A stretch of 63,088 nucleotides of DNA, counting the filler, from Reclinomonas americana ATCC 50394 (Eukaryota): assembly GCA_048213135.1 (NCBI GenBank). It is 6 parts of 3 records of this genome, joined end to end, with 100 filler letters (N's around TTAATTAATTAA, not from the genome) between each part and the next. Parts side by side here need not be neighbours in the genome. Positions count along the whole stretch, not along the records: positions 1 to 11,023 come from PS015190.1; positions 11,124 to 17,077 come from PS015190.1; positions 17,178 to 30,896 come from PS015190.1; positions 30,997 to 50,648 come from PS015190.1; positions 50,749 to 57,742 come from PS015191.1; positions 57,843 to 63,088 come from PS015192.1. One strand, 5' to 3'. The translations under genes and the position numbers were made by a program. Below are positions 1 to 61,100 of the stretch, one piece after another (positions within the stretch are counted from its first letter, which is position 1; every line of letters starts with the position of its first letter). Below the pieces are notes generated by a model, which did no database searches, had not been told where the DNA came from, and worked only from the letters and a program-made list of their open reading frames with translations.

Positions 1-3000
1 GACTCTCGTCGTTGCAGATGCGTGAGTTGCTCTTCTCTGGCGAAGTGATTGACCAGAGTCTGGTGCGACGTGTGCTCCGCGAGGCGCTGCAGTCACCCGA
101 AGTCCTGTCGCGAGGTTTGCACGAACCATAAGCATTCCATGTCGCGCTGCTGTGCACTCAGTCTTGTTCTCTTATGTGCGACCAGGCTACGTCATTGACG
201 AGCTGCCGCAGTCGGGTGCCGATCGCTCCACACTCAAGGAGGTGAGCCGACCAGTCCGTCTTCTTGCATTTCGTTGGTGCTTGCGTACTCATTCGCGTGG
301 GACAGTTCTTTGACGAGGCCGGCCTGCGCACCAATCCTCCCGAGTACATTATCGACCTGGATGCCAGCGACGAGGATGTGTTGCGACGCACCACGGAGCT
401 GCAGGAGAATCCGGTCACGAACCAGTATCACTCGGAGTGGGATCTCAATCCACCCGAGTACCAGCATCGCTTGCATCGCCAGCGACTGGAGGAGAAGAAG
501 CGACGCGATCGTGCTGGCCGAGAGGACGAGGAGGAAGAGGAGGAGCCGGAGGAGGAAGAGGAGGAGCTCGACGAGGACGGCAATCCGATTGTTGCGTGCG
601 AGTGTTGTGGAGGAGGCGTGGCGATGTGACTGAAGGTGATTCTGTGTTATTGTCGAGCAGCCGAAGTGCGGAAAGGGCGTGTATCTGGACCCGGAGACTC
701 GGAAGCGCCTCATTGCACCGCTGGTGTACCAGGAGACCGTCAAGGAGAGCTTCTTGTCACACTTGCCGATCAGCCAGCTCATTCCGCGCCCAGTGTACGA
801 GGCCGCCAGGAAGCGCAATCGTCTAATTGTTCTCGACGCATGTCAGGTGCTGTGAGCCGTTGTTGGGCACTCTTGTTGCGGATATGTGACTCATTGCGAA
901 TGCGTACTCTCAGCCATTTGCGGATGTGTGGCGCTCATTGCAGCTGCACTTGGGTAACGTGCAGCGTGTGGCTGTGGCTCGCCGCGCGTTGCTTCCGCAA
1001 GACGAGGACTCGAAGATTGAGGATCCCGAGCAGCAGTTGCAGTTTTTGCTGGAGGGCAACGAGGCCATGGGCAAGGTTGCGCTGTCCGAGTACGGCCAGT
1101 CGTGCCCGGTGGAGATGATGATGGGACGTCGTATTGCTGGATCGCCCGAGTATGCCGTGGTGTACCGAGTTGCGCGCCACACACACCCCCACCCTCTCAA
1201 CCTGTCGTCTCCTGTTTAACTCAACCGCCCGTCGTTGTTGTTGTCGCAGAATCAACTGTACTTGTGCAGTTCGGCCAAGGCCATGCAAGTGATGCTCGAC
1301 AATCCCACTCTGGTGCTGCGCTTCAAGCCCGAGCTGCGACACTTTAATGGCCTCGTACTTGGTCCGCGCCAGAGCGGCAAGCGAACTCTGAGTGAGGCCC
1401 TGGCCGAGCGCTACAATCTGCGCACCCTGTCCATGCCACATCTCATGCACAAGCTGATGAGTTCGGAGCTGGAGGCCACGCACCCGCTTGCTCCGCTCAA
1501 GCAGGAGGTGACTACGCAGCTGCGCAAGAACGAGCCGCTGTCGCCCGATTTCTTTGCCAAATTGCTGGCCTTTGAGCTGCGCCTGGTGAGTGACCGTAGT
1601 CGCACTACGAGTCGTCATCCCCGCTTCCCACATTACTCACCTTGTGGCGTTGGCACAGGCGGAGCCTGTTGTGCAGTCACTCTCCAGTGTGGAGGCTGCT
1701 GTGGCTGGTCACTGCCGTTCTGGCCAGGGTGTTCTGCTCGTCGGTTTCCCGTACACACTGGAGCAGTTGCAGGCGGTCATTCGCGTTGGATTCCAACCCA
1801 ACCTCGTGTTCTCCCTGGAGGCTGGTGCGGCAGCTGTTCGTATTTTACACAGTACGGGCATTTGACTCATTCCTCTGTTTTTTTCGGTGTAGACTTGGAT
1901 CAGGAGGAGAGCATTGTGGCGAAGCGCTACGCGGCACGGTATCCGGGTATTCCCGGCGAGCTGGAATCGTTGCGTGGCATGGTGGCGCTTGTCTTGCTTC
2001 ACCCTTTAGCTATCGCGCTCACCTGTTGTCGTTACGACAGGTTTGGTCCACCGCTGGCATCTCTGGCCACGGCCAATGCCGCTATTGCCGCCATTTGCGG
2101 ATTCTGCGAGAGCCCCGAAGAGCCGTTCCAAGACATGCCCCCCGTCAAGGTGATTCGCCTCGAGGTGCCGCGCATGAGGACACCGGAGGTTGGCTTGGAG
2201 CTGGCCTCGTTGGCGTTTGATCCGTTCGTGCGCAAGTGTGTGCCGGCTGAGGAGGATCAGCTCGGTGGCGAAGAGGAAGACCCTGAAGGTTTGGATTTTT
2301 CGCAGTTGCTGCCTGCCTTTTGCTGCTGCTGCTCACGTGGTCGTGCTCTCACGCAGAGGATGAGGACGCACCGGGTCCCAAGTACACCGACGACGAGAAG
2401 GCGGCTGTGCGCAACGTGACGTGCAAGTTTGGCGACTACCACAATTACTGCCCGGTGGAGTTCCACGAGCGACGGCGGCTGGTGCGCGGAAAGCAGGAGT
2501 TCGCCACTGTGTTTGAGGGACGCGTGTATCTCTTTGCCTCGGAGGCGAACATGACGCGCTTCACTTCGCTACCGCTGGCGTACCTGGAGCAGATGCCGGC
2601 CGTGTCGCAAGCGCTGTTGCTGAGCAGTTGCGCGCACTCGATCATTCTTGTGTGTGGCGATGGCGAAAAAAGAAAAAACTCACACTTGTCACCGCACACA
2701 CAGTGAGTGAGCGGCGTCCGATCCCGCCGATCCGCGTTGCGATTGCTGGCGTCGACGGTGCCGGTGCTACGACGCTGGCCGAGCACTTGAGCAGCACCTA
2801 TCAGGTACCGGTGGTCAACTGTTCCGACGACTTCCTCGCGTCGCTGGCGGAGACCGACTCGGAGGCCGGCATTGCTGTGCGCACTATGCGCGATGAAAAG
2901 GCGGCCGCAGCAGAGCTCCGCGAGCGCAACAAGGCGATCCAGAAGGTACACGACTTGTGTGTGTGCCTCTTTTTATTCCTCGCACCTGCGTTCTCCTGTC

Positions 3001-6000
3001 CTGATTGTCGCGATACAGACCATCAAGCTGCTGGCCGCCAATGGTGTGGCCGACGAGGAGGAAGAGGGCGATGGAGAAGCGGCGGCGGCCGAGGAGGTTT
3101 GTCGTATTGCTGCGCCGTGGTATCACCACAATGTGCACAGTGCTGACTGGGCTGACGCAAAAAATCGTAGGGCGCTGCGTCGCTGGAGCGCCTCCGCACG
3201 CTGTTGCGCGCGCTCGAGTGCGAACCGTTCCGCTCTAGCGGCTACATTATCGACAAGTTGCCGATGGATCTGTCGGCGGAGCAGACACAGTCACTAATTC
3301 CTACTCTTCGACTCGACGCCGTCATCTCGCTGCAAGTGGAGAGCGAGAAGATTGTGAAGAGGTGGGGTTGTGTTGGTTGTTTGCTGCAGCGCGCACAGAG
3401 TCGCTGACTGCATTCTCTGTGCTTTTATTCGGCAGACTGAGTCCGGCAGCGGCCAAGGTCGAGTACGCCAGGCGCGCCACGAAGAAGGCGGAGCGCGCTG
3501 CTCGACTGGCCGAACGTGCCGCACGCCCATACACGGGAATCGACGAGGAGGAGGGTGAAGAGGCCGAGCAGGAGGAGGAGGAGGAGGAGGAAGAGCCGGT
3601 GGAGGATGTGGTGCGCGGTCAGATCGAGGAGACGTATGGAGCGCAGAGTGGTGGTGTGGAGGCCGCAGTGGAGGCGCTGCGTGAGGAGAACGTGCGAATC
3701 GTCGAGGTGGATTCGAACCGCACGATCAAGCTCACTCGTTTCCTGGTCGAAAGAGATGCGCGTGACATTTTGGCGTCGCGCGCCTCGCTCTTCCAACAGA
3801 CTCACGTGCGCCCAATTGACGCTTGCCTGGCTGAGCTCGGTGAGGAAAGCTGTGCATCCCATGTGTTCGAGTTCTCTCGTGTGCTTACTTACTTGGTTGC
3901 AGACAATGGCACGCTGCTGCTGAGCAAATTCGGCCGCTGCTGCCCGGTGACGTGGAAGGACGACGGCCTGGTGGCCACCTGCCCCGTGGACTACACTGCT
4001 CGCTTCGCCACTGGTTTGTGTGGTGGTCTACCTCTTTCTCGCGTAGCATTCGCCTTTTTGCTCACAATTCGCCGTGCAGGTATCGAGGTGCAAGAATGGG
4101 TGGCTGTGTGCTGTCGCCAGTTTGTGTACTTTGTGCGTGGTCGACTGCGCGCATTGCAGTTCCGTCGCTTCATCCGCGACTACGTTGCGTCGCCAGCGCC
4201 ATCGCCGCTGTGCACACCCAAGATCGCTGTCGTCGGGCCGCCGAAGAGCGGCAAGACGTCGCTTGCTCGCCGTTCGGCTGAGCGCTGGGACGCTGTGTAT
4301 GTGGAGGTCGAAGAGTGCATTGAGCGCGCGTTGGCACTGAAGAGTCCGCTCGGCAAGCGCGTCAAGGAGGTCTTGGTTTCCGGTCGTCCGGTGCCACACT
4401 CGATGGTGGCCGAGTGCGTCAAGTCGTACTCCATGTGCGACGAGTGTGTGCAACGGTTAGTCGCCGATGTGAATGGTGATGTGGGTGCAATGTTGAAACG
4501 CTCACGTGTTGGTGCGTGCAGCGGGTACGTGATCGACAACTTCCCGTCGAGCATGCAGTACGCGTCGCACGCCGAGCGTCTCGGAGTCGTGTTGGACATG
4601 ATTGTCGACCTGGCGATCTCGGCGGACGAGTTGGAGCGACGACGACAGGTTGACTACAATGCCGCGTACCAGTCGACGACGTTGACCAAGGAGCAAAAGT
4701 TGTGTGCCACCGCATGCTCGCTTTGCCGAGAGAGAGTGTGTGCTGACATGCCCCGCAGGAGCGAGTTGATGTATGCCAACTCGCCGCATGTCATGGCCTC
4801 CAAGGTGCAGGGCCAGGGTGCAAAGCAGGTACAGGAGCGCATCAAGTACTTCCAGAGTCTGCGGTGGAACACACAAGGTTTGTGCGACACGTGGCAGCTC
4901 ATCCAAGGCGATGTCGGCTCATGTCACTTACTGTACACTTGCAGAACTGGATGCCAGCGAGTCAAAGTGGCAGCTGGTGGAGCAATGCTGCACCGTTTCC
5001 GACAGGAGACGTGCCAATCTGCAAGCGTACAAGCGCGCACTGGCCACTGGTTTGTGTCCTCATATGTGCAGGTGCCATTAGTTTCGCCAGCTGATTGTTG
5101 TGCGTTTCGTTTCGGCAGATCAACCAGTGTGCATCTACGACACGGGCATCACTCACGAGGATGTGGCGAGTCGATTGAGTACATTTGAGAGATATTGTGC
5201 CGTGCACCACTTGGACCAGAATGTGCTCGTGGAGTGCGACAGCGACGTCAAGTACCAGTTTGCCGCCGAGTACAAGGTGCGACACTATGATTCTCCGTGT
5301 GGATTTGTTGATGTGAGCAGCTCTAAATCTCACTGGCTACATGGCGCAGGACTACATTTTCTTTACGCGCGACGCTGCGTCGCTGGCCATCTTCATGGAT
5401 AATCCAGAGAGGTACTACGCGGCGCATGTGGACCGTCACGCACCACTGCCACCGCAGAGACCACATGCTCTGTCGGCAGAGGAGCTGGCGGTGTACGACG
5501 AGCAGGACTCCTCACACGGCTCGTCGGCGTCGGGCGACGTGGTGCTGGACACGAACCGTGGCCCATTCGATGTCGACTACCGGTTCGGCCTGGGCGGCTA
5601 CTGCCCGGTGACACTGACCGAGTCGCCTGTCACGTGAGTGCGCGTGGTCATCATGAGCTTCCATCACTGCCCCTAATCGTCGCCGTGCAGTGCACCCAAA
5701 TTGATTCGCGGCCTCAAATCGCTGGCGGTGGAGTACGCCGGGCACGTGTACACCATGGCCGACGAGGAGAAGCGGAAGCGCTTTATGAAGTTTCGTCGTC
5801 TTGTGAAGAAACTTCCGTTGACATTGGCTGTGTGTGTCTGACACGTTTCGCACGCGCGCAGTGCTCCGTGGAAGTTTATCAATCGCCAGCTGCCGCGGAA
5901 GCTGCCACCACCGAAGCAGCCGGACTTTGACATCAAGTCGCTGCCGAATCTGGGTTTCTTGGAGCAGACACTGGCCGAGCAAATTGTACAGGTGTGCAGA

Positions 6001-14100: not shown

Positions 14101-17077
14101 GAGGCCGCGACGCAGGCGGCAGCTGAGCGCGACCGGCTGCGTGGCGAGTTGCACCGTGCACGCTCGGAGATTGAGGCGCACCGTGCCACCATTCTGGATC
14201 TCACGGGCGAGCGCAACCGCTTGCTCGATGAGATTGAGCGACTGAAGCGCGAGTACGTACTGGAGATCGATCGTGTGCTGCTGGAGGTGCAGCAGCTGCA
14301 GCAGATGTTGGCCGACCGCACCNNNNNNNNNNNNNNNNNNNNNNNNNNNNNNNNNNNNNNNNNNNNNNNNNNNNNNNNNNNNNNNNNNNNNNNNNNNNNN
14401 NNNNNNNNNNNNNNNNNNNNNNNNNNNNNNNNNNNNNNNNNNNCTTGACGCACGTGCTGCTCAATCATCTTCTGGCGCTCCTCGACAAACTCCTTCTGCT
14501 GACGGATGAGATCGGCGCGCACGCCCTCCAACTCCGCCTGCAGCTGCGCAATGCGAGCCAGCAAATCGTCGCGCTCGTGCTCCAGGTCTGCCACACGCCG
14601 CGCGTGGTCGCGCAACGCGGCCTCGTGCTCGGCGCGCAACTTGTCCAGCTCTTGCTGCAAGCGATCGCGGTCACTGGTCATGGCCTGCAGAGCCTGGCGA
14701 GTACGCTCCAACTCGGCCTGCAAGTCGGCCAGGGCGCGGTTGCTGCCAATAGCAGTCAGTTTCCCCATCAAAATGTATAGAATGAACACAACCAAACTCA
14801 CCGGTCCTCCAGCTCTGCACGCGTGGTCTTGAGCTGCTCGCGCGTCTGGTTCAGCTGCTGCTCCAGGTCGGCCTTGATGCGACGCAGGTCCTCAATCTCC
14901 TTTTCGCGCTCCGCCAGCAACTTGCGCAGACGCTCAATCTCGGCATCGCGCTCTGCCACCGCCGCCGCACGCTCCTCCTTCTCGCGCTGCAGACTGGTGC
15001 GCAAGCGATCACGCTCTCCGCTCAGCTGCTCCACCGTCGTCTGGTGCGTCCGCACCAACTGCTGCCGCTCGGTAATCATCGTGTCGCGCACAGTCTCCAG
15101 CTCGCGAACCTCGGCACGCAGCCGTTCGGCCGTCGTCTGCAAGTCGGCCAGTCGGCGTGCCAGGTCGTCGCGCTCAGTCGTCATGCGCGCAAGAGCCTCC
15201 CGTGTGGACTCCAGCTCACGCTCCGTGCGCTGCAACGCCAACTTGCCCTGCTCAATGGCCTGGCGATGCACCAGACGGGCCATCTCACCCTCGGCCAGCA
15301 ATCGCTCAATCTCGGCNNNNNNNNNNNNNNNNNNNNNNNNNNNNNNNNNNNNNNNNNNNNNNNNNNNNNNNNNNNNNNNNNNNNNNNNNNNNNNNNNNNN
15401 NNNNNNNNNNNNNNNNNNNNNNNNNNNNNNNNNNNNNNNNNNNNNNNNNNNNNNNNNNNNNNNNNNNNNNNNNNNNNNNNNNNNNNNNNTTGAGCAGCTG
15501 GAAAAGGTCATCGACGAGCTGCGCAAGCAGCTGCAGACGGCACTTGCAGAGCGCGACGATGCCAGGCTGCAGCTGATGGTGGCTCTGGAGCAGCTGCGAC
15601 ACTTGAGTCAGGTGAAGGGCCGCGTGCAGGACCAGCGCGATGCGGTGGAAGCGGAACTGGACGACACAGTCAAGGAGCGCAACCAGAAGAATGCCGAGGC
15701 CAATGCGGCCATTGCACAGCTGGACTCGTGCAACAAGTTCCGCGGACGCACCATTCAGCAACTGGAGGATGACCGTGACAACCTGCAGCGTCGTGTGGAC
15801 TTGCTGGTACGTACAAATAAGTCATCATATGACGGAAGTGGTGATGAGCTGATCGTTTGTTTGTGGCAGACTCCGCGTACGTTGATGGTGGAAATGTGGA
15901 GCAACCGACAGATCCCGGTGACGGTGAATGGTCTCACGCCGGTGCGCAAGATTCGTGAGCAGACGGCCAAGGCCGCCGGCCTGCCCAAGTCGACTGCGCG
16001 GTACATGTCGATCGCCGATGCTGGCCGCGTGCTGCCGATGGATCCGGCCCTGACAGTGGCTGACGCCGGCATTCTGCACACGCCAGTGGTGCAAGCGGTA
16101 CGTGATCACCACCGAGAGTTGGTAATGGACCCATGTGTGGGTGTGTTCACTGACTTGATATTTGCAGTCGCTCGACTCGTACGCCGTGGATGTGAGTTCG
16201 CCAAGCGGTATCAAGACTCGCCTCACCGACGTGACTCGTTGCGTGCGCTCTGCTTGTTTCGCGTCACACATACTATTCTGCTTACGGGTTCATGACATGC
16301 AGCTTCGGATCCGATCCGACGGCTCAAGCACGCCGTGTTGGCGCTGGAGACGGTGTCGGTGGACTATGTGGATCACGTGCAGCTCCTGGGTCGCAATCTG
16401 GCACCCATCGATGGGCCGGACGACGAGACATGCGGCGCTGCTGGCATCGAGCACAACTCGGTGGTCGGAGCGGTGCGTTGTCATTGTTTTGATCTTTTCT
16501 ATTCGTGATATGTTACTGATATTCACACGCGAAACAGCGCTGGAAGGAGATGCCGTTGAATCTGCGCACGTGGACCGGCCGCCAGGAGACGCTCTCTGTG
16601 AAGCGTTGCGTTGATTGTCTGGGTTGTGTGTTTTGGCACCTGTATGTGTGTTTTCCCAACAAATGTTTCTCCGCTCTTCGCGCAGCGGTGACGCAACTGG
16701 AGGCGCTGGAGAACCACGTGGTGCAGTGCGAGAGCCTGCCGAAGACGTCGGTTCCGTACATTTTCTTCCGCCACGGCACGCGCGACATTCCAAAGGAGCC
16801 GTCGATGCGTCTCGCCGATCTGGGTCTCAAGGGCGGCGAGATCCTCACTGCCGTTTCGTGCACCGAGTGCGGAAGTGCCTTGTTGCTGTGTTGTCGCTGA
16901 CACGCACGCACATCTGTGTGTACACGCAGACTCTGACGACGCTGTCGGTGGACGTGGTGACACCGTCGGCCACCACGCTGCGCATCACCAGTCTGCGTCG
17001 TGAGTACAATGCCTTGTTGTGCGAGTGCACAATGTTGTCACTCACTCATGCTGGCGACTGCAGCGACGCACACGATT
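11124..17077 (+). CDS. Very long coiled-coil protein with C-terminal tandem ubiquitin-like domains; partial at both ends; segment 14444-15316 is flipped
   Basis: More than 1000 aa of E/R/Q/L/A heptad sequence, followed from about 15870 by repeats such as YAVDVSSPSGIKTRLTDVTPSDPIRRLKHAV and LNLRTWTGRQETLSVKPVTQLEALENHV...LADLGLKGGEILTA. Confidence 0.8.
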
Positions 17078-24300: not shown

Positions 24301-24637
24301 GGAAAGCGCTGTGTGCTGTACACGGCCTCCAGGAGCTCCAGTTGCGGCGCAGAGCTGTGCCGCAAAAACAGATGCAGATGAGAAACAGGGGCATTGAGTG
24401 GTGGGAGCTGGCCATGGCCACGAGAGAGAGAGAGAGGCGCAACTATTTGCGATAATTCCTGCGCTTGTACTGTGGAAACATGCTGCGCTGGCCTGCAGCA
24501 GTCGTCGTCGTCGTCGTTGTCGCTGTTGTCGTCGCAGCGGCAGCGGTGGCCGACTGCGGCGCACGAGCACTGCTGGTGCTGCCTGCCCACTGCGCGCGCA
24601 CCCGACACAGAAGAGGAAAATCGAGTGAATGACTCAT
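21390..24637 (-). CDS. Non-TALE homeodomain transcription factor; 5' end uncertain (gap)
   Basis: Exons ending at 24444, 24354-24301, 22377-22315 and 22227-21390 splice to KRRNYRKYSAPQLELLEAVYSTQRFPDRNQKEVLAAQLGRSVSSITVWFENRRRKEQR, with canonical 60-aa spacing. Confidence 0.9.
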
Positions 24638-27482: not shown

Positions 27483-28129
27483 TCATTTACGCTTGATGGC
27501 CGTCGTCGCCGCAGAGGCTGCGTGTTTGCCTCGTTTTCTTGGCGGTTCATCCGTGTCGGTGGTCTGTGCGCCGTTGCTGGCTGCGGCTGCTGCGGCGGCT
27601 GCACTCTCCAATGCCGAGATCCGCTCCTCGTACAGCAGCAGCAGTTGTTGGATCTTGACAACGTCGGCTTGGAGGCTGACGGCGGCCACTTGTGAGGCCG
27701 CCATGGGTGCTGGTGGTGCTGCCACTGCGTCCTCCACAGTGGCGCCATCACCATGCATGTAGCTACCGAGAGCGTAGCTGGAGAGTGCGTCGCCAAAGAG
27801 AACATACGAANNNNNNNNNNNNNNNNNNNNTGTCTGCGCATGTGAGAGAGAGTGAGCAAAAAGTGACGCACCTCTCTCTCTCTCCGTATGTGTGCCCGTG
27901 TGCGCAACGGGTACATGTGCTTGTCGCTGGCCCTGTGGCCCAGCAGCGCCTTGCACGACACACATCGGAGTACTGGCGACTGCGCTGTTCTCTCCACGGC
28001 CGGCGTGACGACCTGCACGCAGATGCAACCGCCGCGCTCGGGGTCGACGCTTTCACCGACAAAGGCACACGAGTCGCTGACGATTTGCCGACAGGAGCGA
28101 CACTGGAACACCACGCCTTCGTCGCCCAT
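27483..28129 (-). CDS. MIS18: Mis18 (Yippee/Mis18 zinc-binding domain plus C-terminal coiled coil)
   Basis: VFQCRSCRQIVSDS...LRCVSCKALLG (two CxxC), YALGS, and the helix KIQQLLLLYEERISALES; basic C-terminal tail. Confidence 0.8.
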
Positions 28130-47334: not shown

Positions 47335-49473
47335 TCACTGCACCGTAATGGCATCTGCTGCTGCCGCGCCTCCGACTGCACGAGCAGCGGCCACTGCCTG
47401 GGGCGCCTTCACCTTTTTGAGGCGCACGATTTCCTCGAAAATGACAGAGAAGACGAGCTTGAAGTGCTGCAGACAGTGCAGGCGCGCGCGCTCGGCCGAC
47501 GGCAGCGTCACAGCGGCGGCGGAGAGCTCGTCCACCTCATTCACGACCCTCATGCAGGCAATGTAGTTGAGTTCGCTGTTGAGCGACACGAGCACGTCGA
47601 CTTCGGGTGGCACGGCCGAGTCGACATAGTACTCTGCAGGCGGAATGCGTGTCATTGCAAGCGCTAGCTGTGGCCAGTGGCGGGTCGGCGGTGATGGCGT
47701 GCGCGACGCAACGACGTGTGCTCACGCGGCTAAGCGCATGATTGCACATTAGCAGACGACGAATGCTGTCCCAGCCCACCGGGCCCATGTCATTCACTGC
47801 CGACATAGGAGATGAGCACACAGCACATGTCACCCACGTGGTAGACTCGTCCGCAACACTCAATGTCGAGCTCCACCACCGACATGTTGTCCTCGAGTGC
47901 CGAGAACAGATCCACGATGCCCTCGTCATCGATCTTGTTGGCTGTGAGATGGACAACATGAGCCACGTCCTTCCTCGCTCTGCTGCGGAGCGAAGGAAAC
48001 GCAACACTTGAGCGACAACTTGGTAATCTGGTCCTTCTCGCGGAAGAACTGAGCGAATTCCTTGGCACCCGGCGTGCCAATCTCGTTCGACGTCATATAC
48101 AGCTTCCGCAGCGACACATTCTGCTCTCGCAACGCGCTCACAATCGCCCGTGCACCGTCGTAACCAATGCGGTTGCTGTCGAGAGCCACCCGACGAATCG
48201 TCGAATTCTGAGCAGGATGAGAATGCGCGTTGGCCCTATGCAACATAATTGTACTTGTCAACACCAGCACACCTCTCGCAGCAGCTGTCCCAGTGCAATG
48301 CCGCCGTTGACTCGCAGACCATTGCCACTCACGTCCAGCGATCGCACGGTGCGATTGTGAGCCAGGCCCTGCGGCGTGCGGTGTGACTACAACACAGACA
48401 TGTACAGCACCTCGAAAGCGATTACACACCACGCACACGGCTCGCACACCCACGTCCTTCAAGGCGCACCCATTAATGTGAAGCGAGGTGAGCTTCAGCT
48501 GCGGCGAGGCGAGTGCCGGACCAACGTGTGCCACCACACCCTCGTGGCCCAACTCCATGTCTGACAATCGCACAAGGATGAGCAGCCGCAGGTCAACAAC
48601 AAAAAAGACAGAGAGTGCATGCACCGGTGACCACGAGCGTCTCGAGTGTGTCATTTGACGCCAGACACATTGCCAGAGCGCGGCAGGCAGCCATAGGATC
48701 CTGGCACTTGCTGGCCGACAGGTTGAGCGACTTGAGCGTGTGATTCGTCGCCAACCATCGACACAGTGCCTCGATACCGGGAGCGCGACATGGGGCGACT
48801 GTATCGACTTGCATCAGCGCTGTGGAGGGAAGAAAGAAAGAAAGAGAGAGGAAAAGGCGTACACTGCAGATCCAGAGTCTCCAGCGCGCCGGCGTGTGCA
48901 AGTCCGTTCTCCACAAGCACATCCAGCAGGCGGCCAAATACCTTGTTACCTGAAGCACATTCAACGAGAGGAGTCAAGCCATGCTGTACTTGCAATGTGC
49001 GCTCTCTCCGGAGCTCTCACCGTTCAGTCGGAGCCAGCGCAGAGTCGGAACAGATCGCAGCACGGCGCACAGTTGGTGCACCGATTCCTCATCGAATGTG
49101 TTGGCTGTTGGCTTTGCGTGAGCACCAGACAGCGACAGGAGCAAGAGGCAGAGAAGGATGGGGGCGGACCTGCCACATTGAGTTCCTCCAGCGTGGGATG
49201 GTTCTCGAGAGCCGCAAAGATCAGTCGCGCAGTCGACGGCTGCAAATGAGTGTCTGTCACGATACGACGAGTCAGTGAGGATCGAGTGAGTGAGGGCGCT
49301 CGAGTGAAGCAACACTCAACAAGTCAAGTCGATGCGACGCAGTTGAGTGGGTCGAGTGGCCAGAGCCTCGGCCAGAGGCCGCGCCAGTGGTTCATACAAT
49401 GGTTGACCTGACGCAATCCAACAATGAGAAATGACTGATGAATGCACGCGCACGACAGCTCCTTCTCTCTTCT

Positions 49474-49523
<50 letters not shown>

Positions 49524-49712
49524 CGTGACGCAACGAGCCAGAATCAAGTTGGTGACTGCATCGCCATCGGTCACGCGCAGACGCGCAAAGAGCGCCTCGA
49601 AATCTTTGGGCGAGAACGCGCCCAACTCGGCCAACACCGTGTTCCGCTTGGGCCACACTGAGTCATCGTACACGCGCTCTTGTGCACCCTCACCGCCCTC
49701 TTCCTCTGCCAT
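47335..49712 (-). CDS. Ribonuclease-inhibitor-type leucine-rich repeat protein
   Basis: Repeats such as HPTLEELNV, HTLKSLNLS, VALDSNRIGYDGARAIVSAL, SLRKLYMTSNEIGTPGAKEFAQFF and LSLKSNKIDDEGIVDL. ATG at 49712. Confidence 0.88.
49477..49519 (+). repeat. (CT)n microsatellite in LRR gene intron 1
   Basis: Uninterrupted CT run. Confidence 0.93.
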
Positions 49713-49779: not shown

Positions 49780-50648
49780 TTAATCATGTGCTGCGGGATC
49801 GAGCAGCTCGAGCCACTCGGCCTCGTGCTCGTCGGGTGCATCGATCTCTGCGTCGGCCACCGCACATGCAATGTGCCAGGCGGTCGCACCGTGGGTGTTG
49901 GGTCGCGACAAATCCGCTCCGAACTCGTCAATCAGAACCCGCGCACACGCAATGTCGCGCAGACCGAGCAGTGCGGCCACGTGCAGTGGCGTGTGACCGG
50001 ACACGTCGGCTGCCTGCTTGGTTCGATTGTAAGGGTGAGTATGCAGCTTGCACAATGCCTATAGCTGGCAGAGCAACGAACGCAACATTGGGATCGGCAC
50101 CGGCGCGCAGCAAGAGCCGCAACAGCTCGGGCGACGCCAGTGGAATGGCAAAGTGCAGTGCGGTGTGTCCGTCCACGTCGGCGACATGCACGTCGGCACC
50201 GCGTTGCAGAAGCAGATTGGTCAGCTGGATGGTGGCGGACAGGTTTTGTGCATCGCTGCGATTGATACGACTCGCCGGCGACAGAGCATACAGCAACACC
50301 TGTCGAGAGGCGATGAGTAGGGTGGGGGAGGGGGGGTGCTGACAAATACATACACACACACCGATGCCGATCGCTTGTCAAGTTCGTGAATGCTGCTCGG
50401 GTCGTGATCGAGAAGCACGGTGACAATGTTGATGTGGCCGCCGAGCACGGCCAGATGCAGCGCCGATCGACCTGCATCGTCCACCACACGCCAGAGCGCC
50501 AGGCTGGAGGGTGCCTCCAAAAACAGCATCACCAGCGACAAGCTGCCGCGGAAGGCGGCATAATGCAGCGGCACAGCTTGCCGGTCGTCGACCGCATTCA
50601 CCTCGGCACCGGCGGTAATCAGTGCACGAGCCACATCGACGCGACCAC
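49780..50648 (-). CDS. Ankyrin-repeat protein, 3' part
   Basis: AGAEVNAVD...PLHYAAFRG, GRSALHLAVLGGH, GADVHVADVDGHTALHFA, GHTPLHVAALLG, GATAWHIAC. Confidence 0.92.
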
Positions 50649-50748: not shown

Positions 50749-53558
50749 GTTCTGCGCCACCGATGGCGGCGCCTGAGTAGGCGGCGGTGGTGGCTGTCGC
50801 GGCTGACGGGCTGGCGGCAGCGGATCACCAGGTCGCAGGGGCAGGCGTGTGGCATTGGTCACCAATCGCATGGTGGCCTCGGCGTCCGCCGCCGACAATG
50901 CATCCACGCCCTTGGCCTCCACCGCCAAGCGCGTCACCTGACGCGCCAAGTGTCGTCGCCAACACCGCTGAATCACAGTGGCGGCGTAACTCTCCACAGC
51001 TGCGACAGCAAACAAAATATACACAAGATCAGCAGGTGGAGGGGGAAGCAATCGAACAGAGTGTAGCAAGACTGACGACGCAACAGTGGAACCACTGCAT
51101 GGCAAAGCGATCGAGCACTCGTCGCCATGCGCGTTGTATTCTGCGAGCTGCGCTCACTCGACGAGCGTGGTGCGCCAGCCAGGCCATCTGGATGGTGCAT
51201 GCTGCACCTTGCTCTCGCGCCTCTTGCAGGGCGTGCTGTTGCTGCTCGGCAAGCTTCTTGCGAGCAATGAATCCTCTGTTCAAAAAAAAAGAGTGATATG
51301 ATTCAGCGGGCGATGGAATGCGTGCGTTGACCGACACATACACACACAACACTGCACCTCCACGCCGACTGAATGAGAATGGCGGCACCACGGAGGAACC
51401 AGCAGAACGAGCGGGCGCGGTTGGTGAAGGTGTAGGCCCGAATCGACCGCTGCAGAATGCCAGCTGCACGCTGATACACCACCGCCGCCGCCTGACACAG
51501 TTTCGTGTACAGTTCCGGCTGTAGCGCCACCGACTGATTGCCAATGATCCACTCGCCACGCGGTGCGTGCGTCTGCAACAACAGCTCGCATAGCTTCTTG
51601 GAGAACAGGCGTCGCACCACTTCCTGCACGACGGCTCCGTCCGAGAACGTCGAGTCGGCATCGTGCGATTCCTGCGCGAACGCCACTGGTGAGTCTTGAT
51701 ATGCGGTTCTCCCTTTCCAATCACCGCGGTCGCAACTGCCACACGCTCGCAGCCACGGCGAAGACTTCGTCGCGCCGTATGCTCAATCAGACCCCCACCC
51801 AACTGCTCCGAAAAGGCCGACAGCGGCACAAACACTGTGCGCAAAAAGTGTCGCAGATGCAGGATCGATCGCAGAGCCGAGCAGCCGGGTGCCGACACGA
51901 GCTGCACGTTGCCAGCGTAAGATTACACGGAAACGCACACGCCAACATGGACAGGTGTGACTCACATCGCCGCACAACGCATTAAAGTATGACACATCGG
52001 CACCGCCAAGAAGCGACATCTCGAGTGCCACAGTTCCGTATGCTGAGCACACCCCCCAAAGTCAGCACGAGCACAAANNNNNNNNNNNNNNNNNNNNNNN
52101 NNNNNNNNNNNNNNNNNNNNNNNNNNNNNNNNNNNNNNNNNNNNNNNNNNNNNNNNNNNNNNNNNNNNNNNNNNNNNNNNNNNNNNNNNNNNNNNNNNNN
52201 NNNNNNNNNNNNNNNNNNNNNNNNNNNNNNNNNNNNNNNNNNNNNNNNNNNNNNNNNNNNNNNNNNNNNNNNNNNNNNNNNNNNNNNNNNNNNNNNNNNN
52301 NNNNNNNCATCATCATTCGTCTGTCCCTCACATTCCCCCTTTTTCTCGGTGCGCCGCGACAGGAGCATGCACGCATGCCCACAGAACGCGCTGCTTCGTC
52401 CTCTGCGGCTGCGTCGGGAGGAGACGGTGGCGACTCGTCGGCCGGCGCGTCGGGAACATTCGCCTGCGGCTTGCAGGCACTGCTGGCTGCGTGCAACACG
52501 CGCGCACACGAGGGCCTCATCATGTGTCTGCGGCACACGGCAGTCAAGTCGAGCAACTCGTTTGCGAATCCTGTCACGGCACAGATCCTTTTGCGCCCCG
52601 CCTCGGCGTGGTTTGGCAGTGCTCCACGGACCGACAGCTCAGCGGCTGCGTCGGCCGCCGTCGACCTGGCGGTTCGCTTGTTCACGTCGGTCGATGATGA
52701 AACGGTGTACGTGGCCACGGGTGCACTGGCGCCGCTGCAGGCTATGATGGTGGACATTGGCGAGTTGCTGGCCCCGCGCATTGTCGGCGAGGCAGCAATC
52801 CCGTACATGGTGTGCGTCTGTCAGGCGTACCTGCCGTCGTCGCCGGTGGTGCCCCCGAATCCTCTCCTCGGAGGTTTGTTGAGCGACGGACACGTGACCT
52901 CCNNNNNNNNNNNNNNNNNNNNNNNNNNNNNNNNNNNNNNNNNNNNNNNNNNNNNNNNNNNNNNNNNNNNNNNNNNNNNNNNNNNNNNNNNNNNNNNNNN
53001 NNNNNNNNNNNNNNNNNNNNNNNNNNNNNNNNNNNNNNNNNNNNNNNNNNNNNNNNNNNNNNNNNNNNNNNNNNNNNNNNNNNNNNNNNNNNNNNNNNNN
53101 NNNNNNNNNNNNNNNNNNNNNNNNNNNNNNNNNNNNNNNNNNNNNNNNNNNNNNNNNNNNNNNNNNNNNNNNNNNNNNNNNNNNNNNNNNNNNNNNNNNN
53201 NNNNNNNNNNNNNNNNNNNNNNNNNNNNNNNNNNNNNNNNNNNNNNNNNNNNNNNNNNNNNNNNNNNNNNNNNNNNNNNNNNNNNNNNNNNNNNNNNNNN
53301 NNNNNNNNNNNNNNNNNNNNNNNNNNNNNNNNNTTTGGAAAAAAGAAATCGCGCTGCGCGCACCCCAGGATGGCTGGCTTGCATTTCCAGGTAGGTTCCG
53401 TCGCCAGACATGGAAAACGACGATTGCACATGCAACTGGCCGCCGGCACACACCACGCGCTTCAGCTGGCACAGAGTAGAGACAAATGCCGAGAAGCTGT
53501 GGGATGAACTGTGCGAGTGCATCGTCACTGCGGAAGAATAAAGGGGTGAGCCAGCCAG

Positions 53559-53591
<33 letters not shown>

Positions 53592-56407
53592 GTTGCGGAG
53601 GGTACACAACTCGTACACGGGAGTCCTTCGGGGCTGAGTGTGCGCATGTACATGTCCATGGCATCCCGAGTGCACGAACTCAGGCGCGCCGAGAACGACG
53701 AGTCGGAGAAGCGAATGCCCTCGTCACCGTATCGCTGATACACCGAGTCCACGACTTGCCCCAACATCCACGAGTGCATCAAGTGCGAAGTAACAAACAG
53801 CGGCACCGCGGCTGGCGACAGTGGAGTCGGTGCGTCTGCGGAGGCCTGATCGGCGGCAGTGGACGACTTGCTGGCATACGCAAAGTTCTCGGGCATCGAC
53901 AGGAAGCTCAACACAGGCTGGTCGTCGGCCGCGTTGGGGCCGACAAGCTTGCTGTTGATCTGCTCCACCAACCACGACATGGTCGACAAGACACCACGGC
54001 GCACAAGCGCGTCAAACATGTCCTCCAGGCGACGACCGCAAGCGTGGCCCTCTGCAACAGACACGCGTGAGTTTTTCACTCAGTTGACGACGACCATGGT
54101 GAGCGTGCTGCGTACCTCGAGCCGCCGTCTCCAGACGATCGAGAATAAACTCGGCCAATGTGCCGCCACTTGCAATCTGCGGAATGGATGCAGAGGTTGG
54201 CACGCAGAAGCACACAGAGAAATGCATGAGGAGCAGACGCACCGTATTCTCCACGGCCACCGTCGAAAGACCGGCGTCCAGCACCTCCTTGGCGCACTCT
54301 GGATCCGACAACAGCACGTGTAGCACGTAGCGATCGAGATCCAGACCCGAAAAGTGGCAGGCACACTTGACCAGCATGCTGAGATCGGAAAAGACAAAGG
54401 TGCTGTTGGTGAGCACGCCGTCGCGGTTCACCAGCAGCGCATCGCGAGACGTCAGCGACGGGCCACGCGAGCTGTAGCACGACAGGGCAATGAGGCCAGC
54501 CAGGTGTCGCAGCACGCCGTGCGTTTGTTCCGGAGACAGGAAACGGGAAATGAGCTTGAGCAGTCGCGGCCACGACTGCACGTCGGATGACAGCTGGTCC
54601 GCCGCTGCGCCAGCACACCAACACACACATCAGTGACAGGAAGGGGAAGGGGGAGAGGGGAGAGGAAACNNNNNNNNNNNNNNNNNNNNGAAGAGAGCAA
54701 ACCATGACTGTCGATCTTGGCGAAATGCTGCAAGAACGGCAGGTAGGTGTTGCGGTGCTCGACAGGCGACGTCAAGATAAAGTTGAGCACCGACAGGCGA
54801 CGAAGTTCGGTGCGCGAGAAATCCAAAAACTGCCTCACGCAGCTTGTGAGTTCGCGAACCGGCACACAATACGTGCAAGAGAAGTTGTCACACCTGACTA
54901 ACAACAGAGTAGTGAAGCACAAAACGAGAGGCATGATCGCCCTCGTCGAAATAAATGTCCAGTCGCACGCCAGGAATCACCGACGGCGAGGCGGTGGTGC
55001 GCAGATGCGGGACGCCGATATTTACAGCACCGGCATCCGCCAGCGTGCTGGGTGGTGGCACAAAGTAGCGCAGCAACTCCCAGGCGTTCAGGAGACGCTC
55101 TGGATCCGGACCGAGTGCGTCGTGACTGATGTGCACACGCAGTCGTCAGCACACCCATGGTGCAGAGAGAGGCAATCACATGTGCGACGCAACGGATGCA
55201 CTGGGGCGCCATACAATCTCTGCCGCAACCACGACGGCGTGGCGGCACCGGGAGAGTGAAAGCGCGACGGATGTATGCCGGAGCGCACCGGCGATCCATC
55301 AATGTCGGGAACATGCGTACTGGCGAGCAGCGAGATCAACTCGGACATTAGCTGCTGCTTGGCGTGATCGCTCGGCCCGTTGAGCACCATCAGGTGCGAC
55401 GTGCGATGTTGCGTGACCAGTAGCAGGCCTGCAGCGACAAAAGGGGAGATGTCGGTGAGCCGATAAAGGAGACCAGGGGGTAGAACTCAAACCGCGCACG
55501 GACCGTCAATCAGCATCTGCTTGGCGGTGCGATACAGGCCCCTGCTGCCCCACGGCAACGCCAGTCGCGACATCGGAACCGCATGTGCAAAGAGGGCCTC
55601 CTCGTCGTCCTCTCCTTCGCCGCCCGCCCCACTCCTATTCACACGATGCAGACGCAGGTACTGATGCAAGTCCTCATCATCGCCGTCCACCGACGGCACC
55701 GCCGGCACCTGCAACGACAACGAATACCTATGCGCGATCCCGCTCATTCTCAGGAGCCACACAAGGGTAAAAACACAGCAGGAGAGACACACACCCTCCA
55801 CGTCTCTCCGTGACGCGCGACGCTGATGATCTCGAGGTTGTCGTCGTCGTGGTCGAATCCAGCTGCAACATGCGCTCTGTCAATGGCGCAGCCACGGCAG
55901 TCACACTCGAGTCTTCCTCATCGCGCAGCACCGGCACCATCGACGATTCGCTCTCCGCCAGACTGCGCAACACGCACGACGCGAGCAGCGGTGCTCTCTG
56001 CAACTGCAAATGGTCCGCACCACACCACAGACGAACACAAGAGAGAGCGAGAGAGACAAGGGGGGTGTCAACATCAACCCACACTGTGTCACACACACGC
56101 GCGACGGAGAGAGAGACAGACCTGTGCATGTGAGACATCGACCAGAGCCGCCACAGAAGTGGTATCGCGATCATCGGACTCGAACGGAATCACCGCCAAG
56201 TGCGGCAACTGCACATCCATCACTACTCCCCCCGCACACAGCATGAGTGCACACACACACACGAGCAGCGCAAGAGAGTGCATGAGACAGACCGCGAGCG
56301 CCGTGCACATCGGTTCTCCGCACACGCACTTGCACCCATCGATCCTCACTGCTCACAATCACACCCTGCACCCACTCGCCACCACGTACACACGCCCAAC
56401 AGCGCAT
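50749..56407 (-). CDS. Highly divergent myosin-like protein (SH3-like N-terminus, degenerate motor, IQ motifs); 3' truncated; segment 52308-52902 is flipped
   Basis: Colinear myosin landmarks: CWACVRGGEWVQGVI, LLCFYP, GLYRTAKQML, MVLNGPSDHAKQ, RLLNAWELLRYF...RLDIYFDEG, DALVRRGVLSTMSWLVEQINSKL, YQRYGDEGIRF, TFACGLQALL...LIMCLR, WIIGNQSVAL, then LQRSIR, IQSAWRG, IQMAW, IQRAWRR, IQRCWRR. Confidence 0.72.
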
Positions 56408-56526: not shown

Positions 56527-57742
56527 ATGTTGGGCGACAGTGACAGTGCTGGATGGAACACGGTTTACTTCGCCTGGTCTGGGTGCCCCACATGCACTCT
56601 CTCTCTCTCTCTCTCTCTCTCGCTCACTGACACACACACAAACTGACTGTCACAGCGATGTGGCGCTGATTGTGCTTTACCTGCTCACGATTGTGCTCAA
56701 CGTGCGACGTCTGTGGATCGGGTGGCGCATGTCGAGCAGTGAGTCGGCGAATCAGCAAGGGCGTCGATCGTCGTCACATGTGCAGGAGAATGCGCAGGCA
56801 AATGCCGCGGAAAAAAGCAGTGGTGCCGTGTCGCCGGTCGCTGCGGGAGTGTCAGTGTCGCCCGCGCTGTTCCGTCGCATGTTGTGCTTGTTTACACTGG
56901 CAGCGTGTACTTGTTGCGTCATTCCGCGTGAAGTGAGAGAGAGTCCTGTGCACACGCTCATTGCCGATGGGGTGCTGCAGTTCGCGCCATGATGTGTCTG
57001 CTGGATTCGCTGTATCGTACGCCGCTGTATGATAGCGATGAGAAGGTGCGCTGGGTACATTCGGCGTTGTTTACCACGTTTTCGCTGTTGCCGGCGTACT
57101 TTTTCGCCACCATGGAGAGTCTGCTGATCACGTACTGGTCGGAGTTGTACAATTTGGCGTTTGCCACGGCCTCGCGTTCGCTGAGTGCCACCGAGGCTGC
57201 GGCGCGCAGTGCGGCGCGTAAGAGTGCTGGTGGGCTGCCGGTGTCGGAGAGCACGGGTCTGCTGTCGAGTTTCAATGGCGCCGATGAGGAGTATGGTGGT
57301 GGTGGNNNNNNNNNNNNNNNNNNNNTGGTGGTGGTGGGTCGCGATCGCGTGGTGGTGTGCCGTCGGCGTCGTCGGGTGCGGCGTCGGTGCCGTCGTCGCA
57401 GAGGCGGCAGCGGTTGCAGGAGGCGCTGGCGAGTCTGCCGCCGCCACCCGGCGCGCACATGGTGACCACAGACAATGTGGGTCTGCCGACCAGCATCAAT
57501 ACCGCGTCGCCGAGCGAGGGTGTCGGCGGGTCGATGACGGCCCGGTCGGCGCGGTCCGATGCTGCCATGGGGGGCGCCGGTGTGATAGCCGCCGGGGGCG
57601 CGAGCATGAATACGCCGCGCTCGCTCATCTCCGACCCCGGCGATGCCATGTCGACGCCCGGTTCGCAGACCATGTGGAGGCCAACACCACGCGCACAATT
57701 TGGCGTCGACGACGACGATATTCGCGGCAGCGTCAAGTCGAC
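56527..57742 (+). CDS. THH1/TOM1/TOM3 (DUF1084)-like multi-pass membrane protein; 3' truncated
   Basis: TM helices with CLFTLAACTFRAMM and LLPAYFFATMESLLITYWSELY. ATG at 56527, head-to-head with the myosin-like gene (119 bp). Confidence 0.65.
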
Positions 57743-57786: not shown

Positions 57787-57798
57787 TTAATTAATTAA
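57787..57798. other. Artificial scaffold-concatenation linker
   Basis: TTAATTAATTAA within N runs. Confidence 0.97.
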
Positions 57799-58161: not shown

Positions 58162-61100
58162 ATGGATCCCAGCGGTGGTGGTGGCCCTTCTCTGGGCATG
58201 CACGAGCGACGCACTGATCGTCGCTTTGAGCCGTATGGCGGCGGTCGCGCAGGTCAGCTGCAAATTCGCGCGCGCGTGTGTGTGTGTGTAAAACAAAGAA
58301 GTGAGCGACATTTCCACTTACTTGTGTTTCCCGCCCTCGCCCTCGCACGGAAGGCGGTGCAGGTGGCGACTATCCCGGCGCACGGTCTGCTTGTGTGCAT
58401 GTCTCTCTCTCGCTTTCTTCGTCTCGATGCTCATGTTTGTGTGCGTTGTGTAGTAACGAGGCTCCTGCATATGGTGGCGGTGCTCCTCCTCGCGCCTCTG
58501 GGTTCAGCAGTGGTGGTGGCGGCGGTGGTGGCGGCGGTGGTGGTGGCTACGATGGTGGACGTGGAGGAGTTGCGTTTACTGTGCAACATGGAAGTTGTCG
58601 CTCGTGGCCAAAGTGCATTCGCATTTACAGTTTGGTGGTGGTGGCGGCGGCGGTGGCGGTGGCTTTGGTGGCGGCTTTGGCGGTGGTGGCAATCGTCAGG
58701 TGCAGTGCTCTTTTTTTGGTTGTCGACAACCGCGAGCGACGATCTCACGGTGTTTGTTGATAGCAGAATCGCGATGAGATTCCGCCGTCACGCACGCTGT
58801 GGATTGGCTCGTTGCCGGCGCCTGTGGACGATGCTGAAGTGCGCGCCATGTTTGAGCACTTTGGGCAAGTTGCGTCGCGTGTGTGTGTGGACTGCTCTCA
58901 GTGAGGCCATTGCACGATTGACACTCGGGTGCAGGTGGAGAAGATGAATATTCTGCACGACCGCAACTATGGCTTTGTGACCATGGTGCGCATGGAGGAT
59001 GCGGTGCAGGCGCGTGACGCGCTTGATCGATCGGATCTCAACGGACGGCGCGTCATTGTCAACTTTGGCACTGGTGAGTGGCAGTCTGTGTTTTAAGCAG
59101 TGTTTGTTGGCCCGAGAGATATATAGAATGGCCAGCGGTGTCTCGTATTGTGTTGTTGGTGGACGATGATGCCTCGTGACGGTCATTCGTGATGTTGTTG
59201 ACGATGATGTTGTTGATGATGATGGTGGTGATGACGGGCGACATGAGTGATGAGATTTGATGATTGATCGTGATATTCTTGTTTATCCACGTAGAATCAC
59301 AACGAGATCGCCCGCGCCAGAGCGACAGGTTAGTCGCGAATGAGCCATGCATATTCTTCATGAGGAATCCCTGCACCGAGTGGCGACGTGTATCATTCAA
59401 TCTTTTTTCGATGCCGTTGCCGGATGACTGACATGCATTTTCTCTCTCCCTCCCTTTCCCTCTTCTCCCACCTTCCATGATCCACCATCCGTGATGTTTC
59501 TGATCCGTCCACGATCGTGCATGATGATGATGTTGATGATGATGATGATGCTGTCGATGATGATGCTATTGTGCTTGGAATGAGCAGCGGTTTTGGTGGT
59601 GGTGATGGCGGTGGTCGTGCTCCGGTTCATCCAATCATGCTCTCTTTTTGTCGATGTCGGCCTTATTGTTGCTCACTCTTCTGTTACTCTGCGTGCAGCG
59701 TGAGGAGCAGCAGCCGTCGACCACCCTCTGGGTCGGCAGCCTCGATCCGCAGACCACCGAGCAAGACTTGCACTCGCTCTTCTCGACCTGCGGTCAGGTG
59801 CGTGAGCGCGTCGCGTGCACTCATGCTGGTATCCCGCTCACACGTTGTGTTGCAGGTGGATCGCGTGTCGGTGCTGTCGGACCGCCGTTTCGGATTTGTG
59901 ACGTTTGTGCGCATTGAGGACGCGATCCAGGCCAAGAGCCGACTGCACGACACTGTGGTGCATGGCTCGTCGATTGTGGTCAAGTTTGGCACTCGCCGTG
60001 AGGGTGGCGGTGGTGGTGGTGGCTTCGGCGGCCGACCCGGCGGTGGTGCTGGCTACGGAGGTGGCGGTGGCGGTGGCGGCGGATACCCGCCTGCGTCACG
60101 CGATCGCGACTACGACCGCGATTACCGCGAAGGTGGTGGTCGTTCGTCGCCGCGCTACGACCGCGGTGCTCCTTCTGGTGGTGGCGGAAGTGGCTTTAGC
60201 GAGCGCCGTGACGATCGATCGGAGCGTCCGCGGTACGATCGAGATGCGTACCCTGCGGCCGGATCTGGCGGTCGTGAAGGTTTGTGGAGTTGTCCTCTTT
60301 TTTTTTGATATATTCTGTTTGCTGAGTACATCACCATTCAGGAAGCGGCTTTGACAGCCGTGCGCCCGCCGGCTACAATCGCGGCGGTTTTGACGACCGT
60401 GGCGCCGGTGGCTATGACCAGCGTGCGGCAGGCCAGTCTCGCCAACCCGATCCGTACGCTGGTGGCGCCGCTGCGCCACAGGGCGCAAGTGCCGGCGCTG
60501 CCTACGGACGGCCGGCAGCAGCGGTGAGAACGTGCTGCTGCTGTTGATGATGAGAGGGAAGAGAGAGATGCTTACCAGGTCGCCGCTGCAGGCGGGTGGT
60601 TACCCTCAGGCGGGTGCGCCTTACGCGGGCGGACAGCCTGGTGGCTACCCGCAGCAGCCGCAGCAGCAGGCACAGCAACCGCAGCAACAGCAATGGGCTG
60701 GAGCGCCACCGGCTGCCGCTGCGGCGTCGGGTTTGCCGCCAGGTTGGGTTGAATTTGAAGATCCGCAACAGCGACGCAAGTACTACGTCAACACGGCCAC
60801 CAACGCCAGCCAGTGGACGCGTCCTGAGGCGGCACCGGCGGCGGCTGCCGCTTCGTACCCGCATCCGCAGCAGCAGCAGCAACAGCAGCAACACCCCATG
60901 GCGGCGATGCAGCAGCAGCAACAGCAACAGCAGCGACCTGCAGCCGCCATGCAGCAAGCGCCAGTGCAGCAGCCGCAAGCGGCTCGTGGACCTGCTGTTG
61001 CGTCACTGTCTTTTGTTGCATGAGTGGGGAGGAGAGTCTAACATTCGAGGCGCGCTCACAGCCACTGCCCGCCGGTTGGGAGGAGCACAAAGATCCCACC

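Follow-up and report, generated by a model that had tools for sequence, protein, structure and literature searches.

The subject of this work is a class of introns with GTTGCG at the 5′ splice site (donor), found in a window of 63,088 nucleotides, filler included, from Reclinomonas americana ATCC 50394 (assembly GCA_048213135.1). The window joins six draft scaffolds by N..TTAATTAATTAA..N linkers at 11068-11079, 17122-17133, 30941-30952, 50693-50704 and 57787-57798. It has many internal gaps, the shortest of 20 N, and several genes are cut by the joins and the gaps. The DNA is eukaryotic with about 57–60% G+C in the genic parts, gene-dense and very intron-rich, with an intron for about every 300 bases of gene. 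The introns are mostly 56–90 nucleotides (nt) long and have a CAG or TAG acceptor with a branch-like CTSAY 10–35 nt upstream.

Genes for adenylate-kinase/YHS repeat, ubiquitin-like repeat, homeodomain, PH-domain, VPS13-like, hydrolase-like, cyclase, LRR, ankyrin, membrane and RRM/WW proteins are among those read here. An Rfam scan of the window found no family, hence no small nuclear RNA (snRNA) gene, U1 and U6 included, and a transfer RNA scan of the window found none. Exon chains were rebuilt by reading frames, and donors, phases and flanking bases were counted by hand on the sequence. About 147 introns were modelled by hand, an approximate denominator because the ordinary introns were only partly frame-checked. 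Judged from these sequence models, GTTGCG defines a real and major class of U2-type GT-AG donors, at the start of about one in four introns here.

GTTGCG hexamers as intron starts

An initial annotation of the window had listed 30 introns starting with GTTGCG, in 11 genes and on all six scaffolds. The hexamer was found at 30 of the 30 positions, the listed sites match that spread, and all were accepted as donors. Frame gives the evidence in 25 of them, either by an intron length indivisible by three, with a clear frame in the exons on both sides, or by an in-frame stop on read-through, and no alternative in-frame GT was seen at those sites checked for one. The list proved an undercount. With seven additional donors the total is 37 in 12 genes, about 25% of the hand-modelled introns and in keeping with the quarter that had been roughly estimated. 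Three further GTTGCG sites are ambiguous (Table 1).

The hexamer occurs 93 times on the two strands of the window, against a mean of 68.75 (standard deviation 8.98) after shuffling, and 1 of 100 shuffles reaches 93. GTTGCG followed at intron distances by CTNAY and YAG gives 39 matches where 9.78 (standard deviation 3.91) are expected, and none of 100 shuffles reaches 39. The 39 matches have 32 distinct starts, namely 25 accepted donors, 2 ambiguous sites and 5 non-donors; the fit to the pattern, within the gap limits used, thereby covers 25 of the 37 donors.

All 37 introns begin with GT and have CAG or TAG acceptors (CAG in the 15 aligned). In the introns that fit the branch/acceptor pattern or were aligned, the branch-like motifs are CTCAC, CTGAC, CTAAC, CTTAC and CTCAT, the same as in the ordinary introns. 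A second GT stands at +6/+7 in 24 of the 37 sites. We rejected it as the true donor, since it shifts the frame by two bases and most such hexamers are without G at +5.

Protein motifs continue over several junctions. The RRM motif is unbroken at 58869, where the upstream exon ends at position 24 of the Pfam RRM_1 profile and the downstream exon starts at 25. The Ank profile is contiguous over 50086 as well, from 29 to 30 of its 33 positions, and translations agree with the hand-read frames around 51736 and 33008. The homeodomain junctions at 24443, 24300 and 22314 keep the canonical spacing of Y8, Q12, L16, Y20, P26, W48, F49, N51 and R53 in homeodomain numbering. At 22314, in helix 3, the spacing retained is that of W48, F49, N51 and R53. 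For very short exons, those being the homeodomain pieces and the exon after the PH junction, Pfam gave no usable matches. The exon after 1169 had no BLASTP match to the YHS paralogue, and the similarity there was judged by eye.

Five of the 30 listed introns (1969, 16605, 37720, 42924 and 43092) are stop-free and a multiple of three long (3n), so frame cannot prove them. Support at 16605 comes from three paralogous ubiquitin-like repeats in which an intron interrupts the same proline codon (16238, 16605 and 17000). At 37720 it comes from the start of the cyclase domain, with the next large exon beginning at position 19 of the Guanylate_cyc profile.

Paralogous positions can carry either kind of donor (a slash marks the exon–intron border). 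RRM 1 has A/GTTGCG at 58869 and RRM 2 has G/GTGCGT at 59798, at the same RRM_1 profile position. In the ubiquitin-like repeats, GTTGCG at 16238 and 16605 stands against C/GTGAGT at 17000 in that common codon, and in the YHS repeats GTTGCG at 1169 is in the same place as G/GTGCGA at 5277. The LRR repeats have GTTGCG at 48005 and 47857 and T/GTACGC at 48862. As either class occurs at paralogous positions, the two classes are functionally equivalent.

The last exon base and the register of the signal

The last exon base (−1) of the 37 GTTGCG donors is A in 14, C in 12, T in 11 and G in none (38%, 32%, 30% and 0%), so that the restriction to A, C or T stated for the smaller set extends to the larger one. 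By hand count, about 90% of the ordinary donors (GTGAG, GTGCG, GTTTG, GTACG, GTGTG and others, each having G at +5) come after a G, which agrees with the earlier remark that they mostly follow G. The ordinary donors lacking it are mostly the best-consensus hexamers GTGAGT and GTGCGT. GGTTGCG occurs 10 times in the window, twice in exons, twice in introns and otherwise antisense or intergenic, and is a donor at none of them.

In the 12 phase-0 GTTGCG introns, −1 is a third codon position and is A in 6, T in 5, C in 1 and G in none. Third positions have about 75% G+C overall. Because G is absent from these positions despite that composition, the −1 base seems to be selected and not merely tolerated.

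The class is wider than the GTTGCG of the initial annotation, as our models contain further GTT-type donors lacking G at −1. Six such variants, one of them only possible, are of the GTTGAG, GTTACG, GTTGTG and GTTTCG types, and they equal the ordinary GTGAGT, GTACGT and GTGTG types plus one T. The GTTAGT, GTTTGT and GTTCGG donors have G at +5 and are preceded by G. The rule read from the modelled introns is that G+5 accompanies G at −1, and that GTT with G at +6 accompanies a non-G at −1.

Two observations concern GTT donors of the ordinary register. GTTTGY donors after G number about 14 by hand count and are a third common type in the whole window. The WD40 gene at 6540-7771 (minus strand) has one intron with a G/GTTCGG donor at 7002, whose use produces a WD repeat junction of canonical form. 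This donor is the ordinary-register counterpart of the H/GTTTCG donors (H being A, C or T). An ESM Atlas search with a WD40 exon matched nothing but generic WD40 clusters.

Displaced by one base, the class lines up with the ordinary donors. Its G+1 corresponds to the ordinary G at −1, its T+3 to the ordinary T+2 and its GCG to the ordinary +3 to +5, and the usual G+5 falls at +6. The T+2 is the sole mismatch, to the ordinary G+1. The class −1 base ranks like the ordinary −2 base, unlike the ordinary −1; in the 92 ordinary donors with G at −1, the −2 base is A in 43, C in 25, T in 16 and G in 8 (47%, 27%, 17% and 9%). On the intron side, +7 of the 37 GTTGCG donors is T in 24, C in 9, G in 3 and A in 1 (65%, 24%, 8% and 3%), and +6 of the 21 ordinary GTGCG donors is T in 14, C in 5, G in 1 and A in 1 (67%, 24%, 5% and 5%).

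The composition is that of the canonical consensus displaced by one base, exon side included. The hand counts at −1 and +7 support the proposal that GTTGCG and G/GTGCG are one signal cut one base apart. A shifted and a bulged U1 register had been lumped together in that proposal. The composition match favours the shifted register, and this part may stand; the bulged-U part is disfavoured, as −1 is never G.

Positions of the donors and features beside them

Table 1. GTTGCG donors, their variants and ambiguous sites in the window. Positions cover the hexamer, and the text cites donors by the position of G+1; new, added to the initial 30; 3n, intron length a multiple of three; pattern match, fit to GTTGCG with CTNAY and YAG.
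Feature	Position	Strand	−1 base	Phase	Intron length (nt)	Context and support
GTTGCG donor	591..596	+	T	0	70 (591-660)	adenylate-kinase/YHS repeat gene; read-through stop, no other in-frame GT
GTTGCG donor	1169..1174	+	A	0	81 (1169-1249)	ungapped block common with YHS paralogue 2359-2625
GTTGCG donor	1969..1974	+	C	2	72	3n, no stop; intron-like signals
GTTGCG donor	2627..2632	+	A	1	77	branch/acceptor pattern match
GTTGCG donor	16238..16243	+	C	1	65	ubiquitin-like repeat gene; pattern match
GTTGCG donor	16605..16610	+	C	1	81	3n, no stop; paralogous repeat position
GTTGCG donor	56913..56918	+	T	1	68	membrane-protein gene; pattern match
GTTGCG donor	58569..58574	+	A	0	62	RRM/WW gene, Gly-rich part
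GTTGCG donor	58869..58874	+	A	0	66	inside RRM 1; in-frame stop
GTTGCG donor	60997..61002	+	T	0	65	before WW exon; pattern match
GTTGCG donor	22309..22314	−	T	2	87	homeodomain helix 3; with stop, pattern match
GTTGCG donor	24295..24300	−	C	2	~1.9 kb (two gaps)	homeodomain; read-through stop, P26-to-W48 spacing kept
GTTGCG donor	24438..24443	−	A	2	89	homeodomain N-terminal arm; intron G completes in-frame TAG, pattern match
new GTTGCG donor	29396..29401	−	C	1	79	PH-domain gene; read-through stop, pattern match
GTTGCG donor	30305..30310	−	C	1	70	PH-domain gene; PH profile 17-52 in upstream exon, pattern match
GTTGCG donor	31281..31286	−	A	0	65	VPS13-like gene; pattern match
GTTGCG donor	31399..31404	−	C	0	67	
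GTTGCG donor	31835..31840	−	A	2	83	
GTTGCG donor	32243..32248	−	A	1	80	pattern match
new GTTGCG donor	33003..33008	−	C	1	68	translation check
GTTGCG donor	33525..33530	−	T	0	64	pattern match
GTTGCG donor	35618..35623	−	T	0	76	hydrolase-like gene; read-through stop, pattern match
new GTTGCG donor	36052..36057	−	A	2		acceptor 35968 (9-nt micro-exon) or 35897; read-through stop, no other in-frame GT
GTTGCG donor	37715..37720	−	T	2	75	cyclase domain start; 3n, no stop; pattern match
GTTGCG donor	40048..40053	−	A	2	78	cyclase gene; with stop, pattern match
GTTGCG donor	41307..41312	−	A	0	65	pattern match
GTTGCG donor	42919..42924	−	A	2	78	3n, no stop; intron-like signals
GTTGCG donor	43087..43092	−	A	2	63	3n, no stop; intron-like signals
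GTTGCG donor	44343..44348	−	C	2	83	read-through stop, pattern match
new GTTGCG donor	47707..47712	−	C	1	79	LRR gene; alternative C/GTGAGC 14 nt upstream needs GAG acceptor
new GTTGCG donor	47852..47857	−	T	1	61	LRR gene; pattern match
GTTGCG donor	48000..48005	−	T	1	64	LRR gene; LRR_6 in upstream exon, pattern match
GTTGCG donor	49529..49534	−	C	1	127	LRR gene; with (GA)n run
new GTTGCG donor	50081..50086	−	T	0	73	ankyrin gene; Ank 29/30, pattern match
GTTGCG donor	51079..51084	−	T	1	85	between IQ motifs; pattern match
new GTTGCG donor	51731..51736	−	A	0	65	same gene as 51084; translation check, pattern match
GTTGCG donor	55188..55193	−	C	2	68	read-through stop, pattern match
possible variant A/GTTGTG	4699..4704	+	A		60	3n, no stop; intron-like signals
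variant A/GTTTCG	5790..5795	+	A	2		paralogue spacing of motif after YHS domain
variant C/GTTTCG	16853..16858	+	C	0		same repeat position as G/GTACGT, G/GTGCGT in two other repeats
variant T/GTTACGT	40246..40251	−	T	0	64	
variant A/GTTGAGT	40422..40427	−	A	0	56	frames read both sides
variant T/GTTGAGT	49315..49320	−	T	1		LRR gene
ambiguous GTTGCG	27903..27908	−	C			following exon lost in gap; pattern match
ambiguous GTTGCG	33695..33700	−	A			in-frame GTACGC 78 nt downstream would give 40-nt intron
ambiguous GTTGCG	33944..33949	−	A			in-frame GTGTGA 24 nt downstream possible; pattern match

The gene at 1-6433 (plus strand) has about 24 introns and codes for a series of P-loop/adenylate-kinase-like modules, with a YHS-type Cys-Pro-Val motif after each. 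Pfam finds YHS in it at E 3.4e-06, with weak ADK and FAP206 matches. In the homeodomain gene, all three introns inside the homeodomain have a GTTGCG donor; the one at 22377-24300 (minus strand) measures about 1.9 kb with two assembly gaps, and the other introns measure 56–127 nt.

A candidate micro-exon of 9 nt at 35959-35967 (minus strand) lies between the donor at 36057 and a G/GTGCGT donor, and the frame survives its skipping. The cyclase gene has at about 38740-38750 (minus strand) a candidate GC-AG intron (exon ...gaggag then gcacgt), or else a C/GTACCA donor 4 bases later. Long microsatellites, of (GA)n/(CT)n and (CA)n/(GT)n, are found at 26740-26990, 30760-30830, 49470-49520, 53560-53600 and 63030-63070. 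They are intergenic and intronic, and several adjoin assembly gaps.

Six putative introns are 3n and stop-free, 1969-2040, 4699-4758, 16605-16685, 37646-37720, 42847-42924 and 43030-43092 (72, 60, 81, 75, 78 and 63 nt). All six have a GTT-type donor, and their retention would add 20–27 residues with the frame kept.

Explanations of the class and known systems

The best explanation, and one towards which we lean on balance, is that this major U2-type class would be the ordinary (A)G/GTGCGY read one base out of register by an snRNA. The ordinary signal would have its usual G+1 replaced by T. The snRNA that recognises it, most likely through the U1 5′ end, would pair with xGTTGCGY the same way as with xGGTGCGY, and the cut would be placed before the only GT on offer, one base upstream. 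We infer U1, and later U6, as the partner, with one snRNA serving both registers.

Several observations weigh against this account. The class is dominated by GCG, with 37 GTTGCG and 2 GTTGAG donors, whereas the ordinary GTGAG and GTGCG donors number 23 and 21, and a simple shift leaves this unexplained. The −2 base of the class (C in 12, G in 11, T in 8, A in 6) has no clear U1 complementarity. At the class −1, C has 32% against 27% at the ordinary −2, and T has 30% against 17%. Moreover, G is expected there at about 9% under the shift, so that 0 of 37 is only mildly significant (about 0.03). As to the donors themselves, the basis of all junctions is frames, motifs and paralogues, not transcripts, and at 1969, 42924 and 43092 it consists of intron-like signals, a match to the branch/acceptor pattern among them at all three, with neither frame nor homology behind them. 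Finally, 19 exonic sense-strand copies of H-GTTGCG are unused as donors, so the hexamer alone is insufficient. Altogether 21 sense-strand exonic GTTGCG copies are unspliced, 17 of them as Leu-Arg codon pairs, and the hexamer therefore would need a nearby branch site and acceptor.

The GCG dominance could arise if no pairing but the most stable one withstands losing the G+1 pair, which would predict a U1 with G opposite +4. It could alternatively mean a dedicated U1 variant or a protein reading the hexamer. Such a dedicated partner, either a second U1 paralogue fully complementary to GUUGCGU or a hexamer-reading protein, is the main rival and in our estimate rather unlikely. The changed position in that U1 would be the one normally facing G+1, and the class would be recognised on its own terms. 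The strictness of the hexamer, 37 exact copies against 6 near variants where ordinary donors are degenerate, speaks for it together with the GCG dominance that a plain shift does not predict. U1 changes matching unusual donors are also reported for Entamoeba and Mastigamoeba, and a standard and a modified U1 for Physarum (10.1101/2022.06.08.495308). However, the GTTGAG and GTTACG donors mirror other ordinary types, which one flexible U1 explains more easily, and the branch and 3′ signals do not differ from those of ordinary introns. The Rfam scan, with no snRNA gene found in the window, lends it no direct support.

An ordinary U1 might instead pair with G+1 and U+2, with the U at +2 or +3 bulged and GCGY paired as +3 to +6, as GT-T-GCGY is GT-GCGY plus one T. 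This bulge +2/+3 register is validated in humans, where it has 68 predicted sites of 201,541, and it resembles the present class in its GUU-type donors and in a consensus that continues one base later (PMC4856993). The class +7 matches the ordinary +6 as this requires, yet the shift fits equally. The bulge would keep −1 facing U1 C9 with G expected in about 90%, while G is seen in 0 of 37 donors and in 0 of 12 at the synonymous phase-0 sites, and we consider it improbable. An artefact is far less probable still, be it of wrong hand-made models, of an assembly error adding a T or of an introner repeat family starting with GTTGCG. The models are indeed made by hand without transcripts, the assembly is a gapped draft, and 5 of the 30 introns are 3n and stop-free. 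Against this stand the 39 pattern matches against 9.78 expected after GTTGCG, the Pfam profiles contiguous over junctions and the ordinary donors at paralogous positions, and 37 identical errors, only at exon ends after non-G, are not credible. As to introners, an alignment of 15 of the 37 introns has no invariant part but GTTGCG and CAG, and its mean column identity is 39%. Least probable of all is a diverged minor intron class. U12-type introns have a strict 5′ motif and no G preference at −1, a likeness to the GTTGCG class, but they differ by RTATCCTT and a TCCTTAAC-type branch site. The one RTATCCTY of the window (1.25 expected) does not fall at a donor, and the introns have the branch-like CTSAY 10–35 nt before YAG as ordinary ones do, with no TCCTTAAC-type site.

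Returning to the shifted pairing, the lineage may have made the one-base-shifted U1 register, an oddity of a few dozen sites in humans, its second standard intron mark, used by about one intron in four with −1 selected against G, a claim that we rate a little short of even. If so, the 5′ splice site helices with U1 and U6 would accept a constant displacement of one base from the catalytic GU. Alternatively, another U1, altered at its 5′ end, would have evolved for the GTTGCG class. Gene finders with a single G+5 donor model would overlook or misplace roughly one intron in four of this genome and so shift the reading frames.

Unusual donors in other lineages, from the preprint cited above (10.1101/2022.06.08.495308), allow a comparison. 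Co-evolved donor and U1 are given there for Entamoeba (GUUUGU and U1 ACAAAC) and Mastigamoeba (GUGCGC and U1 ACGUAC), and unusual donors without co-evolved U1 for Thecamonas and Mamiellales. Like the former two, the window has an unusual consensus in which +4 is a pyrimidine; both GTGCG and GTTTG donors are frequent here, and the GTTTGY ones resemble the Entamoeba consensus. Unlike here, where two registers stand side by side, Entamoeba and Mastigamoeba have a single consensus shift in the normal register. The +6 base is mostly T here, whereas C is reported for Mastigamoeba, with 2.5 introns per gene. The window is far more intron-rich than Entamoeba or the apusozoan lineage (Thecamonas), listed as intron-reduced, and the Mamiellales and Ostreococcus are intron-poor. 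None of Entamoeba, Mastigamoeba, Thecamonas and Mamiellales matches the window in both intron density and +6 preference. Our literature search, which left the supplementary donor tables of genome papers uncovered, found no GTTGCG or shifted donor class described beyond rare human cases.

The closest known system is human, in which a shifted U1 register at atypical 5′ splice sites was reportedly described by Roca and Krainer in 2009. In that shifted (+1) register the helix is displaced by one base and the cleavage stays at GU, and the test oligo had CA/GU, with A and not G before GU (PMC4856993). Like the present class, it has a non-G before GU and the usual G+5 at +6. It differs in being a rare exception, whereas here about a quarter of the window introns would follow it with one dominant hexamer. 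Work on how the cut site is chosen under an out-of-register U1 has so far been confined to rare human sites and artificial constructs. An organism with a quarter of its introns so marked would offer thousands of such sites across its genome in a natural setting. In it one could ask whether U1, U6, U5 or Prp8 determines where cleavage falls, and whether donor classes and snRNA variants evolve together. In contrast to the human exceptions, the shifted-type class here, with its presumed U1 partner, co-exists with an ordinary class that nearly requires G at −1.

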